A DNA stretch of 64,000 nucleotides from a phage. The stretch lies in NCBI GenBank assembly GCA_014913405.1, contig GCA_014913405.1_3931.1. One strand, 5' to 3'. Below the pieces are notes generated by a model that saw nothing but the letters and a program-made list of their open reading frames with translations, did no database searches and was not told the origin of the DNA. Below are positions 29,523-35,065 of this stretch, one piece after another; within the stretch, counting starts at the first letter, position 1, and each line of letters starts with the position of its first letter. The position numbers were made by a program, and so were the translations under genes.

Positions 29523-29551
29523 TTGACTCTTTGAACGGGGTTATCTAGTAT
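29523..29551 (+). promoter_or_regulatory. sigma70-like promoter, TTGACT-17-TAGTAT, heading the small-ORF array
   Basis: -35 TTGACT at 29523-29528, -10 TAGTAT at 29546-29551; followed by hairpin GGGGAGGGAATGACCTTCCCC and the conserved leader. Confidence 0.5.
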
Positions 29552-29614
29552 TTGCATCAACGGGGAGGGAATGACCTTCCCCACTAAATAAAGTCCTAAA
29601 CTGGAGATTCAAAA

Positions 29615-29998
29615 ATGGCATACCGTGCACCTAAATTCATCAACAAAGACAACTTTCGCAACGCACTGGAGAAGTCACTTGATGAGAATTTTAAAGGTAA
29701 CGTTATTGTTGTTCACTCATTTAATTTCAAGTATGATATCAATGGGAATAAAATCAACCATTACACGGCAACAATGCTAGATGGTACTCTTTCAAGTGAA
29801 AAAGCCATTTTACATGCACTTGCTGGACGTGGTAAAAACCTGATAAGATGCGATAAGAGACGTTATCAGGGTGGCGCATATGGTTACGATGATGCTGTTT
29901 ATCATCTTGAAAATATGGGCTATCAAGTAGAAAAAGCTGGAGTGTCTCAAATAATTGGTAGTGATGGTTACGTAACTATCTTCAAAATTAACAAATAA
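29615..29998 (+). CDS. hypothetical protein (accessory array ORF 1)
   Basis: preceded by conserved leader ...TAAACTGGAGATTCAAAA-ATG. Confidence 0.5.
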   Translation: MAYRAPKFINKDNFRNALEKSLDENFKGNVIVVHSFNFKYDINGNKINHYTATMLDGTLSSEKAILHALAGRGKNLIRCDKRRYQGGAYGYDDAVYHLENMGYQVEKAGVSQIIGSDGYVTIFKINK

Positions 29999-30004
29999 AG
30001 TACT

Positions 30005-30033
30005 TTACAGGGGGCTTATAGTTCGATAAAGTA
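30005..30033 (+). promoter_or_regulatory. type-A cassette: promoter TTTACA-17-TAAAGT overlapping hairpin GGGGCTTA...TAAGCCCC
   Basis: -35 TTTACA at 30005-30010, -10 TAAAGT at 30028-30033; four more copies before the ORFs at 30463, 31532, 32329 and 33599. Confidence 0.45.
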
Positions 30034-30083
30034 AGCCCCAGATAAAGAGCTTTACCACTAAATCCTAAATTGGAGATTCAAAA

Positions 30084-30374
30084 ATGGCTACTATCAAAAA
30101 CGTTGTAATCCCTGTAAAAACTCGTGATGACGCTCGCATCATGGCGAAAAAGTTAGGCGGGAAAGTGGTTGACAACGGAAAACAATCTGCTGTAAGATGG
30201 GGTGTGAAGGCTGATAAACAGTTGAAGTTAAAAAATTCACCAATAAATCTTTTTACATGTGTAAACACTATCGGAAAGACAAATGTATACACGAAAAAGG
30301 CATATATTAGACGCGTAGCCTTAACATCTCCAATTCGTACAATGAGAAGTCATGCAAAGCTGAAAATTAACTGA
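30084..30374 (+). CDS. hypothetical protein (accessory array ORF 2)
   Basis: conserved leader and RBS GGAG. Confidence 0.5.
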   Translation: MATIKNVVIPVKTRDDARIMAKKLGGKVVDNGKQSAVRWGVKADKQLKLKNSPINLFTCVNTIGKTNVYTKKAYIRRVALTSPIRTMRSHAKLKIN

Positions 30375-30462
30375 TAAAGTACTTTACAAGGGGCTTAAAA
30401 GTTGATACCTTAAGCCCCAGATAAAGAGCTTTACCACTAAATCCTAAACTGGAGATTCAAAA

Positions 30463-30759
30463 ATGAAATTATCAAATAAAGTTCGTGAAAATCTAAGCAA
30501 ATTACTCAACAAAATTGATTTCATTGAAACATCAAGAAATAGCCATGATGTTATGGAATGGTTACACGGCAAAATAAAAGGTCGTCGTGTAGTGATTTGC
30601 TTATGGAATAGTTGCAGGGAGTATAAAAAACCTGTATTGCAAGTCAATATCTATGATGATAATCTTAAAAGTCCTGTCAAATCTAAAAGCGATTTACTAG
30701 ATTCTTATGAGATAACTGTAAATGGCAAAGTGTCACGTAAAGAGGAAGCACCATGTTAA
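30463..30759 (+). CDS. hypothetical protein (accessory array ORF 3)
   Basis: conserved leader and RBS GGAG. Confidence 0.5.
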   Translation: MKLSNKVRENLSKLLNKIDFIETSRNSHDVMEWLHGKIKGRRVVICLWNSCREYKKPVLQVNIYDDNLKSPVKSKSDLLDSYEITVNGKVSRKEEAPC

Positions 30760-31085
30760 TGACTGGTATCACTGCAATCATTGCCATTTTCGCGCTCTAT
30801 AAGGCATATAAAGCCTATAATCTAGCAAATAAGGCAATCACACAACAGGTTAGTAATAGCCTTGTAATGAGCTTTCTAGAGCGGTTGAGCGATGAACAAT
30901 TAAAGCGGTTAGAAATGAGCTTCAGATTCAGGGCGAGAACTTATCAAATCAGCGACATTTTCAAAGATGATTTTCAATTAGTCGATGATTATAATTCTCT
31001 GATAAATGCTTTAAATATTAGTGACTTAAAAGACTATCATACTGTAATTGTTCAAGAGTTGAGCAAACGAAAACAAAACTGTTGA
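30753..31085 (+). CDS. hypothetical membrane protein (accessory array ORF 4)
   Basis: N-terminal hydrophobic helix ITAIIAIFALY; start overlaps the end of the previous ORF. Confidence 0.45.
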   Translation: MLMTGITAIIAIFALYKAYKAYNLANKAITQQVSNSLVMSFLERLSDEQLKRLEMSFRFRARTYQISDIFKDDFQLVDDYNSLINALNISDLKDYHTVIVQELSKRKQNC

Positions 31086-31110
31086 CACTGATTTTTAGAT
31101 AGATTAAATT
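31082..31110 (+). promoter_or_regulatory. type-B cassette promoter, TTGACA-17-TAAATT
   Basis: TTGACACTGATTTTTAGATAGATTAAATT; followed by hairpin GGGGAG...CTCCCC and the conserved leader. Confidence 0.5.
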
Positions 31111-31173
31111 ACTCATCAACGGGGAGCAATAATCTCCCCCACTAAATAAAGTCCTTAAACTAGGAGATTCAAA

Positions 31174-32871: not shown

Positions 32872-32937
32872 AAACCTATACATTCACCTTATAAACACTG
32901 ATTAACCCCTTACAGGGGCTTTTAGAGGGCTTAAATC

Positions 32938-33171
32938 ATGCTTACAACCATTTATCTCATCCTTTCCATTTGTAACGGCCATTCATGTGACTTTAAAGGG
33001 CTTGAAGAGTTTACAGGAAGTAAAGAAAATGCTATTCAAGTTTGCCAGATAGCAAGACAAGACTACCCCGCCAGTGATGATATACAATGTTACTTTAAGA
33101 CAGAAGATGACGAAGGAATCTATTTCGACAGTGTCGATGGTCAATATGAAATTATCATTGAAAAAGACTAG
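32938..33171 (+). CDS. hypothetical protein (accessory array ORF 9)
   Basis: ORF track; this one lacks the conserved leader. Confidence 0.4.
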   Translation: MLTTIYLILSICNGHSCDFKGLEEFTGSKENAIQVCQIARQDYPASDDIQCYFKTEDDEGIYFDSVDGQYEIIIEKD

Positions 33172-33264
33172 ACAAGCCTGATAAAAGTCTGTAAATTATC
33201 AATCAACGGGGAGGGAATGACCTTCCCCACTAAGTAAAGTCCTTAAACTAGGAGATTCCAAAAA

Positions 33265-33513
33265 ATGTATACTAAAACTCAACTAAAAAACATGGTTAGC
33301 AATGGCTTAATGGATGAAGTCTATAAAGAGTGTAGACGCTACGGGGAAATTAAGGATAAGACTAGTTATGAGTATACCCACACAATAGACTTTAAAACCA
33401 ATGAGAAGAGGACTGACCTTGTTACTGTAGTAGTGATTGAGTATAAACGAATTATTTGGACCTTTGAGCTAGTAAAAGGTGAGTGCACAGAGATAGAATA
33501 TAAAGACGCTTAA
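33265..33513 (+). CDS. hypothetical protein (accessory array ORF 10)
   Basis: type-B cassette upstream. Confidence 0.5.
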   Translation: MYTKTQLKNMVSNGLMDEVYKECRRYGEIKDKTSYEYTHTIDFKTNEKRTDLVTVVVIEYKRIIWTFELVKGECTEIEYKDA

Positions 33514-33598
33514 AGTACTTTACATGGGGCTTATTAGTCTGTATAGTAAGCCCCAGATAAAGAGCTTTACCACTCAATCCTAAACTGGAGATTCTAAA

Positions 33599-33940
33599 AT
33601 GGCTTATGTAACCGTAATTACCGATAAAGCTGGCTCATCTTGGTCAACTCAAGTAAGTGATAAGATGTCACCTATGCAGTGCCTAAAATACTTTGAACAG
33701 TGGAACAAAGGCGAGGGTGTAAGCCCCTTTCAAGTGATGCAAATCATCCATACAGATAACGAAGGGAATAAAACGACCTTGAACAGTGAATACTACGCAA
33801 GCCGTTTTGAAACGAGAAGTAAAACAATGAAGCTTTTACGTGAATCCGGCTATTCTCATATTGCCGCGCTAATCTGGGATGACCTGCTAAAAAGTCAGCG
33901 TATCAGCTATGTAAAGCCTGAAAAAATCTTTATAAGCTAA
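33599..33940 (+). CDS. hypothetical protein (accessory array ORF 11)
   Basis: type-A cassette upstream. Confidence 0.5.
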   Translation: MAYVTVITDKAGSSWSTQVSDKMSPMQCLKYFEQWNKGEGVSPFQVMQIIHTDNEGNKTTLNSEYYASRFETRSKTMKLLRESGYSHIAALIWDDLLKSQRISYVKPEKIFIS

Positions 33941-34140
33941 TCAATGACTTATAAAAAACTTTAAAAATTATCTTGACAATACCCCTTGACATTGGTAACT
34001 TTGTTCGAGGGGGTTTATCTAAAAGGGATTCACTTAAAAGATTCTTTATAGATAAGCTTAAAAAATTGCTTGCAATCATCTTCCAAAAACTTTATAGTTT
34101 ATCTCAAGCAATAATGCTTTCCTAAACTGGAGATTCAAAA

Positions 34141-34671
34141 ATGAACAAGTTCAAAGCTATCAACTACATTCGCTCAAATAGTGTCATGTCTAAGCCTGTT
34201 AAGGATACCTACGAATTTCGTTGCAATGGGGTGCATTTTGCAACAATTACCAAATCAGAAAACGGGGCTTATTACATTCATCGCCGTAATGTTTCAACCG
34301 TGGTAGTCTCTCACTTTATGCAAGCTGTCGCGGAACTTCTCCCGCTGTTTTTAGGTCTTTACTTGGATGAGTGTAAAAACGTTCACAGCCACGTTAAAAA
34401 CATTTTAAACAGTTATAAAATGGCTTATGAACGTTCTATTCATAATTTGAACAAGTTCTATAAAGCCCCTGAAAATACTGTGTCAATAGCTTATGATGTA
34501 AGCGGTGAAATGGTCAATCTCTCCAATGTAGAACAAATTGGCCTTTATGATTTACGTCCTAGCGGTTATTCTAAGACTCTCGGTGAAGGCTTATCCTTCA
34601 ATATCAAGAACTTAGAAAAAATTTTAAGAGAAATTGAAAAAGATATTGACGAGACAATCAAAAATCTGTAA
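34141..34671 (+). CDS. hypothetical protein (accessory array ORF 12)
   Basis: conserved leader CCTAAACTGGAGATTCAAAA-ATG. Confidence 0.5.
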   Translation: MNKFKAINYIRSNSVMSKPVKDTYEFRCNGVHFATITKSENGAYYIHRRNVSTVVVSHFMQAVAELLPLFLGLYLDECKNVHSHVKNILNSYKMAYERSIHNLNKFYKAPENTVSIAYDVSGEMVNLSNVEQIGLYDLRPSGYSKTLGEGLSFNIKNLEKILREIEKDIDETIKNL

Positions 34672-34734
34672 ATTGTCAATCAACGGGGGGGTAACCTGCC
34701 CCACTAAACAAAATCCTAAACTGGAGTTATCAAG

Positions 34735-34998
34735 ATGGAAAACGTAGAATTAACCACACTATTGCAGATTGCAACTGACAAAGAAGACGTAGCGTTGTTT
34801 CACCGTATCGAAAGTGATTTGTTCAATGGTGAAATCATTAAAGAGTCTTACGAGGTTGTCGGATTCAAAGATGGTAAAGCATTTGGCTTTTTTGACCTCG
34901 ACAAAAGCAAAGCGGTTACAATGTACGATGTTCTATCTTGTGAAATTCTGACAAAATACAACGAAAAAAGGCTTGCAACCTACGCCAATATGCAGTAA
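34735..34998 (+). CDS. hypothetical protein (accessory array ORF 13)
   Basis: degenerate type-B cassette upstream. Confidence 0.5.
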   Translation: MENVELTTLLQIATDKEDVALFHRIESDLFNGEIIKESYEVVGFKDGKAFGFFDLDKSKAVTMYDVLSCEILTKYNEKRLATYANMQ

Positions 34999-35065
34999 AT
35001 TACTAATCAACGGGGAGGGAATGACCTTCCCACTAAACAAAGTCCTAAACTGGAGAATCTAAATT

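Follow-up and report, generated by a model that had tools for sequence, protein, structure and literature searches.

Putative promoter-early stem-loop cassettes in the small-gene array of a wV8-like Felixounavirus genome

We analyzed a 64,000-nucleotide (nt) stretch of phage DNA (GenBank assembly GCA_014913405.1, contig GCA_014913405.1_3931.1; hereafter the window), and in particular a recurring element, here called the type-B cassette, in which a predicted promoter and a hairpin precede a small open reading frame (ORF). The roughly 7-kb stretch around these elements is 98.5% identical to Escherichia phage wV8 and matches 262 Felix O1-like records, and by sequence the window is therefore the genome of a Felixounavirus, a wV8-like coliphage. 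The cassettes lie in an array of small ORFs on the + strand (29615-35314), where they alternate with a second kind of cassette, type A; together with a third promoter form, about 12 cassettes are found within 5.7 kb. A phosphatase-like gene lies upstream of the array and ends in a canonical intrinsic terminator, and the ORF list contains no minus-strand genes in the array. All 10 downstream ORFs tested against PHROGs belong to families of unknown function, and none of the 10 array ORFs tested had a Pfam match. For comparison, we used the early regions of 16 further Ounavirinae (Felix O1, wV8, nine other Felixounavirus, two Suspvirus, and three Mooglevirus), along with one Felix-like phage of Erwinia, Coenus.

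The type-B cassettes share a single order of parts: a TTGACA-like -35, a 17-base-pair (bp) spacer, a -10, a short gap, a G-run/C-run hairpin, an A-rich leader, GGAG, and ATG, the last two being present in every copy. Searching the window with a covariance model trained on 62 distinct variants returned exactly the six copies that the first-pass annotation of this DNA had listed, all on the + strand (Table 1). The 30-nt core has three exact occurrences against 0.04 expected, and the repeats fall in families D2, D3, D7, and D8. The stop codons of the preceding ORFs lie in or before the -35 or -10: the TGA inside the -35 of cassette B2 ends ORF 30753-31085, the TAG inside the -35 of B4 ends ORF 32938-33171, and in B5 and B6 the TAA of the -10 is the upstream stop codon, with the -35 of B5 lying within the upstream ORF. 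Cassette B1, the first promoter of the array, has an A/T-rich tract immediately upstream and begins about 320 nt past the intrinsic terminator.

The promoter reading of the type-B elements is well supported by sequence comparison. A -35-like hexamer stands exactly 17 bp from the -10 in all six copies, although five spacers bear no relation to one another; at a fixed position, five or more -35 matches among six copies would arise by chance with a probability of about 0.007. We also built a profile from 117 distinct upstream sequences of relatives, anchored on the first stem base. In this profile, the -35 TTGACA occupies -39 to -34 (94/76/84/64/58/59% conserved by position) and the -10 TAAATT occupies -16 to -11 (88/94/82/81/72/93%), with an A-tract at -49 to -44, variable sequence in the 17-nt spacer and at flanking positions, and ACTAATCAAC 3' of the -10. 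The best candidate for the start is an A preceded by C, 8 nt past the -10, which would give a transcript beginning 5'-AAC with about three unpaired nt before the stem. The proposed order, a promoter and then a hairpin where the transcript is predicted to begin, is thus consistent with the profile and with the fixed distance to the stem. Some details of the earlier description needed correction. The shared TAAATT holds for five copies, the first having TAGTAT, and the gap after it, given as 7-8 nt, is 6 nt to CAAC and 10 nt to the first stem base. TTGACA-17-TAAATT is indeed present at 31082 and 31945, but "textbook" is a generous word for it, as TAAATT matches TATAAT at four of six positions.

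The hairpin is widely retained. Across 16 genomes, which represent three genera, the covariance model found 99 type-B copies, every one in the sense orientation of the genes; Erwinia phage Coenus had none, and carries only type-A-like elements and hairpins over the -10. Among the copies are about 57 distinct stem-loop sequences, nearly all of which pair over 4 bp or more, usually 6-8 bp. The variants include GGGGAGG-CGATAA-CCTCCCC, GGGGGA-TGACC-TCCCCC, GGGGC-AAGATAAA-GCCCC, GGGC-AAGCAA-GCCC, and GGGGAAG-AAATCA-CTTCCCC, and both the promoter hexamers and the position of the hairpin are conserved across the relatives. When arms were swapped between copies, native arm pairs were the more stable (-11.5 against -9.2 kcal/mol), with none of 2000 permutations as stable, and with sequence-defined anchors the pairing exceeded that of shuffles, 31 of 5000 of which were as good. 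The sense strand also folds more stably than the antisense (Wilcoxon p = 8e-5) because of G.U pairs. Together, these comparisons indicate that an RNA-level hairpin is likely under selection.

The argument from compensatory changes, on which the first-pass annotation had leaned, is weak. Two-sided substitution that preserves the stem occurs nowhere among the six window copies: in B2, the change is one-sided, from G.U to G-C, with the two top pairs lost, and the pairing GGGGGGG-TAACCT-GCCCC proposed at 34684 contains a GxG mismatch, so that the best stems for this copy are the one listed for B5 in Table 1 or an interrupted stem. The form GGGGAGGG-AATGA-CCTTCCCC, ascribed to four copies, is exact in three (B1, B3, and B4), the copy in B6 having lost one C to leave 7 bp. 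Five of the six copies fold better than shuffled sequence (z -2.3 to -2.7), B5 being the exception discussed below.

The five interleaved type-A cassettes have an invariant TTTACA, 17 nt, and TAnnnT; their hairpin, GGGGCTTA...TAAGCCCC, covers both spacer and -10. On its 3' side comes AGATAAAGAGCTTTACCACTAAATCC and then the same Shine-Dalgarno (SD) module as in type B; the last 25-40 nt are common to the two types (CACTAAAT..CCTAAACTGGAGATTCAAAAATG). The predicted start of type A is the A just after CCCC, which would place the hairpin upstream of the cassette's own start. An upstream TAAAGT was considered as the true type-A -10, an assignment that would put the type-A hairpins at the 5' end as well, and rejected: it has no -35 partner and varies among relatives (AAAAGT, AAAGAG), whereas TTTACA-17-TAnnnT is invariant. 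Clean double changes are seen in type-A stems, for example GGTGCTTA/TAAGCACC and GGGGCTAT/ATAGCCCC. Type-A cassettes open with a perfect 10-bp palindrome, AAAGTACTTT (e.g., 29998-30010), that shares bases with the upstream stop codon and with the -35 TTTACA and is conserved in most Felixounavirus copies. In the Erwinia relatives, further layouts occur, with the -10 or -35 located in the hairpin loop.

The SD module itself takes only two forms across 364 sites at related loci, CCT-AAACT-GGAG (220 sites) and CCTT-AAACT-AGGAG (144 sites), and is found in the window at, for example, 29594-29606 and 31153-31166 and in all other cassettes. The additional T and A are always found in combination, with no clear mixed forms; one odd site, TCTTAAACTAGGAG, is a point variant of the CCTT-AAACT-AGGAG form. 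The added T and A lengthen, by one U-A pair, a small UCC(U)/(A)GGA hairpin that half covers the Shine-Dalgarno sequence. The two forms could have arisen by a paired indel that keeps a weak translational hairpin intact, or could be just two linked haplotypes.

The third promoter form, which carries only a short hairpin and the same SD module, precedes a conserved gene of 176 amino acids (aa), and a similar, nearly hairpinless promoter is found in Suspvirus and Mooglevirus. Both wV8 (locus 7311-7384) and Felix O1 have a full type-B cassette at this position, and the sequence at 34050-34143 looks like a recent replacement of one promoter cassette by another. After the last gene of the array, an orphan type-A-like hairpin stands directly before the terminator that closes the array. 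This orphan hints that the hairpin and CCCCAGATA form a unit with its own role on upstream RNA. At the other end, the Felix O1 homologue of the terminator preceding the array is t13.

Table 1. Coordinates of the cassettes and associated features (window positions unless another locus is named; CM, match of the type-B covariance model)
Feature	Position	Strand	Promoter	Hairpin	ATG	Remarks
Intrinsic terminator	29157-29212	+		long stem then TTTTTCATTTTC		closes upstream operon before array; z -5.0
Cassette B1	29523-29617	+	-35 TTGACT 29523-29528; -10 TAGTAT 29546-29551	GGGGAGGG-AATGA-CCTTCCCC, 29562-29582	29615	first promoter of array; SD GGAG 29603-29606; CM 29545-29589
Cassette B2	31082-31176	+	-35 TTGACA 31082-31087; -10 TAAATT 31105-31110	GGGGAG-CAATAAT-CTCCCC, 31121-31139	31174	CM 31104-31147
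Cassette B3	31945-32040	+	-35 TTGACA 31945-31950; -10 TAAATT 31968-31973	31984-32004	32038	CM 31967-32011
Cassette B4	33169-33267	+	-35 TAGACA 33169-33174; -10 TAAATT 33192-33197	33208-33228	33265	CM 33191-33235
Cassette B5	34646-34737	+	-35 TTGACG 34646-34651; -10 TAAATT 34669-34674	GGGGTA-ACC-TGCCCC, 34688-34702	34735	hairpin weak or re-registered; CM 34668-34709
Cassette B6	34973-35068	+	-35 TTGCAA 34973-34978; -10 TAAATT 34996-35001	GGGGAGG-GAATGA-CCTTCCC, 7 bp, 35012-35031	35066	CM 34995-35038
Type-A cassettes, five interleaved	29990-33601	+				family D1
Type-A cassette A1		+		30011-30039	30084	
Type-A cassette A2		+		30390-30418	30463	
Type-A cassette A3		+		31459-31487	31532	
Type-A cassette A4		+		32255-32283	32329	
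Type-A cassette A5		+		33525-33555	33599	
Third promoter form	34070-34143	+	TTGCAA-17-TATAGT	4-bp AAGC/GCTT only		before ORF 34141; same SD module
Orphan type-A-like hairpin	35325-35340	+		GGGGCT-AAAT-AGCCCC then AGATA		without promoter; directly before array-end terminator
Array-end terminator	35350-35375 (region to 35381)	+		canonical hairpin then T6		
Type-B hairpin in KhF3 record	KhF3 locus 2243-2263, 3108-3128	-				recorded as "Rho-independent terminator"
Type-B hairpin in wV8 record	wV8 locus 8257-8277	-				recorded as "Rho-independent terminator"

The type-B elements resemble the promoter-early stem-loops (PeSLs) described in the T4-like phages RB49/phi1 and later in PST/T4 and nt-1/KVP40 (Arbiol et al. 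2010, PMC2839356; Comeau et al. 2014, PMC4122927). PeSLs comprise a strong sigma-70-like promoter, an AT-rich upstream region, a polyG-loop-polyC stem-loop, and an SD with a start codon; the stem-loop takes one of five positions relative to the promoter, one of them "downstream of the -10". They flank ORFans in hyperplastic regions and mediate indels and mini-circles, and both an attenuator/terminator role and recombinational shuffling have been proposed for them (PMC2839356; PMC4122927). The elements described here share the sigma-70-like -35/-10 pair at about 17 bp, in the six window copies and in the profile of relatives; the stem-loop, in the form GGGGAGGG...CCTTCCCC and its variants, at a position relative to the promoter set by subclass; the flanks, an A/T-rich tract with the stop codon of the preceding gene at the 5' end and an SD with ATG at the 3' end; and the setting, dense tandem arrays before small ORFans with breakpoints between relatives falling in the elements. 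They differ in that their phages belong to the Ounavirinae and not the Straboviridae, that the -10 is TAAATT or TAAAGT where that of PeSLs is near the consensus TATAAT, and that the type-B stem-loop lies wholly downstream of the predicted start, whereas those in the RB49 intergenic regions examined (211/210, 194/193, and 199/198, within 118000-134000) lie in the spacer or over the -10. In addition, promoter, terminator, and mini-circle activities were measured for RB49, while type B is described here from sequence. On this comparison, the type-B elements are PeSL-kind cassettes in the Ounavirinae, the PeSL class itself having already been described. Our literature searches found no publication linking PeSLs to Felix-like phages, and no transcriptomic study of Felixounavirus.

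The likeness to RB49 extends to the leader. The RB49 194/193 leader, AACTGGAGAATCAAAAATG, matches AACTGGAGATTCAAAAATG here at 18 of 19 positions, and the 211/210 leader, CTTTCTTAAAC-GGAGAATCAAAAATG, matches CTTTCCTAAACTGGAGATTCAAAAATG in 25 of 27 aligned columns, one of them a gap; overall, the leaders of Krischvirus PeSLs and Ounavirinae cassettes are about 90% identical over 27-29 nt. The RB49 and window cassettes share eight 10-mers against 1.25 expected, and a 30-nt leader query of 50,697 phage records gave, outside the Ounavirinae, near-full-length matches among those listed only in Krischvirus (RB49-like). In their promoter and hairpin parts, the RB49 PeSLs and type B are not alignable, and convergence of the leaders on an optimal ribosome-binding site is possible. 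The likeness suggests either that regulatory modules have been exchanged between unrelated phage families or that convergence has been strong. RB49 and the Erwinia Felix-like phages also have a post-hairpin motif in common, CCCC(A/G)TCGAAAC. A degenerate pattern scan of IMG/VR gave mostly chance matches among those listed, and only the Felix-like contigs were informative.

These sequences have been recorded before under other names. They are identical to repeats DR_1 to DR_9 of wV8 (EU877232) and to two direct repeats, of 57 and 39 bp, in Felix O1 (Whichard et al. 2010, PMC3185647): the shorter Felix O1 repeat, TTGACACTGGTTTTTAGATAGATTAAATTACACATCAAC, corresponds to the type-B promoter and the longer one to the type-A hairpin region. 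Both phages' records give them as repeats only and do not read them as promoters, hairpins, or cassettes; these promoters are not listed in the genome paper of Felix O1 (PMC3185647), and the wV8 genome paper does not discuss the repeats.

The explanation that best fits the whole, and one we hold to be probable, is that each type-B element forms a complete unit of the PeSL kind for expressing an early gene, with a hairpin that acts at the RNA level. Host sigma-70 RNA polymerase would bind the A-tract/UP-like region, the TTGACA-like -35, the 17-bp spacer, and the TAAATT -10, and transcription would most likely start at the A chosen above from sequence conservation. The first 25 nt of the RNA would then form the 6-8-bp G-run/C-run hairpin, preceded by some three unpaired nt and followed by the A-rich leader, GGAG, and ATG. 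On mRNAs made from the cassette's own promoter, this 5'-terminal stem-loop may hinder 5'-end-dependent decay by RppH and RNase E, while on read-through RNA the same hairpin, lying 13-45 nt past the upstream stop codon, might serve as an attenuator or a barrier to 3' exonucleases. Finally, the near-identical cassettes would also act as sites of homologous recombination through which genes and cassette halves are gained, lost, and swapped, since about 12 of them flank small genes of unknown function.

Precedents for a 5' role come from Escherichia coli, in which the ompA and papA mRNAs carry 5'-terminal stabilizing stem-loops (Emory, Bouvet, Belasco 1992, via review PMC3997798) and a base-paired 5' end slows RppH/RNase E-dependent decay (review PMC3997798). 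As in those mRNAs, the type-B hairpin is stable, lies a few nt from the predicted 5' end, and is upstream and clear of the ribosome-binding site. The difference is that the type-B 5' end is predicted, that there is no sequence relation, and that this kind of hairpin also occurs in type A, where it is never 5'-terminal. A 5'-stabilizer role for the type-B hairpin is plausible by this analogy, and protection from RppH and RNase E may be its main role, an assignment to which we give slightly less than even weight. The sequence geometry agrees with the stabilizer first suggested for the cassette, but that suggestion treated the hairpin in isolation, whereas the type-A hairpin precedes its own start.

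Several other functions for the hairpin were considered and set aside. Like an intrinsic terminator, it is a GC-rich, intergenic stem-loop of 6-8 bp shortly past a stop codon, but its tails, ACTAAATAAA or ACTAAGTAAA, have one or two T in the 8 nt after the stem, compared with T-runs of 5-7 T at the genuine terminators of the window (e.g., 24705, 26501, 16664, 62834, and 35350), and a terminator pattern scan of the window did not call any type-B hairpin; a canonical intrinsic terminator was thus rejected. An RNase III processing site was rejected on stem length, 6-8 bp against the roughly 20 bp of double-stranded RNA needed. Within the hairpin, a mini-ORF (GGAGG-N3-ATGACCTTCCCCACTAAATAA) was rejected, as its ATG and SD-like arm are absent from many variants, including GGGC-AAGCAA-GCCC and GGGGAG-CAATAAT-CTCCCC. 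Sequestration of the SD by the main hairpin was likewise rejected, with the stem ending 14-24 nt before GGAG at a distance that differs between genera. Searches of Rfam 15 at the gathering threshold returned only tRNA matches in the window, and at E<=1 nothing relevant in 29100-35500.

A number of observations count against the proposed cassette function or its RNA-level hairpin. The type-A hairpins are equally conserved, with 60 variants and no arm-swap permutation in 500 as good, and they lie upstream of the predicted start; 5' protection therefore cannot be a role that the two types share. In RB49, the PeSL211/210 stem-loop is reported to have cut downstream lacZ as much as the rrnB T1 terminator did, and it likewise lacks a T-tract. 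In folding, the B5 hairpin at 34688 is no better than shuffled sequence (z -0.72). Column-wise covariation in the model-based alignment of 77 distinct copies was not above control (80.9% of cells paired against 80.2% when shuffled), with two-sided changes in just nine cells; this test is uninformative because a G-run facing a C-run pairs in shuffles too and register shifts blur the columns, and the arm-swap and anchor-based tests were therefore added. Reverse transcription PCR (RT-PCR) of Felix O1 shows array ORFs 16, 20, 21, and 22 maximal at 5 min but ORFs 17, 19, and 23 at 25 min, two of which (19 and 23) follow type-B cassettes, and there is no pattern of timing by cassette type. The literature searched contains no start sites, RNA 3' ends, or half-lives for Felix O1-like phages, so the type-B start site is a prediction. 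Lastly, breakpoints at gene boundaries, described below, are partly expected under any gene gain or loss.

The strongest competitor to the combined cassette function is the original PeSL view, that the hairpin acts only on RNA arriving from upstream and that its 5' position in type B is incidental; it would attenuate or terminate read-through, or form the protective 3' end of the preceding gene's mRNA. We regard this as a real possibility, though clearly a less likely one. An upstream-RNA role is favored by the type-A layout, with an equivalent conserved hairpin ahead of its own start, by the promoterless orphan hairpin after the last gene, and by the RB49 lacZ result obtained without a T-tract. 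The placement of every hairpin shortly past an upstream stop codon fits as well, and the density of promoters in the array makes damping of cumulative read-through plausible. A 5' role is favored, in turn, because a T-tract is missing in a phage that has canonical terminators where needed, because a position-independent terminator at +4 to +24 would be self-defeating, aborting the cassette's own transcripts, and because the first promoter of the array, which lies behind a strong terminator, keeps its hairpin in the relatives checked despite many replacements of its sequence (at least 10 different sequences).

It is improbable that the hairpin has no RNA function and is a passenger kept by recombination or gene conversion, at most a DNA-level recombination hotspot. 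The lack of significant column covariation, the evident exchange of cassettes between genes and genomes, and the mapping of an RB49 crossover inside a PeSL loop would fit such a passenger, but the roughly 57 type-B and 60 type-A stems all keep pairing, native arms outperform swapped ones, G.U pairs on the sense strand give a strand bias, and the hairpin is kept over three genera even where its sequence has been replaced, as in GGGC-AAGCAA-GCCC. Still less probable is that the early genes are shut off by a phage or host regulator that binds the stem-loop just downstream of the promoter, whether as RNA or as an inverted repeat in the DNA. A later shut-off of early genes is usual in virulent phages, +4 to +24 is a classic operator or leader position, and some array genes of Felix O1 peak late in the RT-PCR data; yet neither loop nor stem sequence is conserved (loops include AATGA, GATAA, AAGCAA, CAATAAT, and ACC), the repeat is imperfect at the DNA level because of a G.T pair, and neither an Rfam family nor a candidate regulator was identified. 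The KhF3 and wV8 GenBank records would make the hairpins rho-independent terminators of minus-strand transcription, the KhF3 features coinciding exactly with GGGGAGGGAATGACCTTCCCC and wV8 carrying a similar one, but this is very improbable and the annotation is almost certainly a prediction artefact, given an array free of minus-strand genes, an antisense stem with an AxC mismatch and lower stability, and an antisense tail without a T-run at a site missed by the terminator pattern scan.

The recombinational part of the cassette interpretation draws on comparison of the arrays. In the nine relatives showing internal breaks, 55 of 58 internal alignment breakpoints fall inside cassettes, which make up 21% of the region. 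Orthologues of ORF 29615 are preceded by type B in six genomes and type A in seven, and those of ORF 33599 by type B in 10 and type A in four; judged by sequence, the two types are interchangeable in front of orthologous genes. ORF 33265-33513 (82 aa, phrog_23636) is an insertion flanked by B4 and A5, and the alignment breaks at 33263 and 33581. It is absent from 14 other Ounavirinae loci compared and evidently also present in wV8, to judge from the near-identity of the genomes, and is on this alignment a clean case of cassette-bounded gene insertion or loss.

Elsewhere in the window, three copies of TCATTTT(C/A)A(A/T)TTGTGCAGGTAG (29205-29354; families D12 and D18) and a 12-bp inverted repeat (29214-29247) are located past the terminator that precedes the array and ahead of its first promoter. 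Beyond the array, a 1.5-kb non-coding stretch (35400-36900) separates the + strand early array from the - strand genes that start at 36984. It is dense in short repeats, CTTGTTAG/A, CTATAAAG, and TTCTTAACAA (families D4, D6, D10, D14, and D17), and could hold an origin, iterons, or a divergent control region; the record of phage momo annotates repeat_regions at its counterpart. Further downstream, 26 tRNA genes are clustered on the + strand (46624-51835), as is usual in phages of the Felix O1 type.

Typing and biocontrol of Salmonella and E. coli O157 make wide use of Felix O1-like phages, whose early transcription is essentially unannotated; the roughly 12 predicted host-type promoters with standard leaders would provide a usable expression map. 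The cassettes would also explain why the small-gene array differs between otherwise near-identical phages and would extend the PeSL concept beyond the T4-like phages, and they may serve as compact natural parts combining a promoter, a 5' hairpin, and a ribosome-binding site. With the hairpin before the start site in one layout and after it in the other, the two types offer a clean test of a 5' stabilizer against an attenuator. More speculatively, and with a likelihood we consider rather low, the unit of promoter, stem-loop, and ribosome-binding site may be a module that moves between unrelated phage families and drives ORFan turnover, with the type-B hairpin acting like a 5' cap. If so, the cassettes would drive the gain, loss, and swapping of ORFans, possibly through mini-circles. 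In type B, the stem-loop would have shifted to just past the start site, providing each early mRNA with a built-in hairpin resistant to RppH and RNase E.

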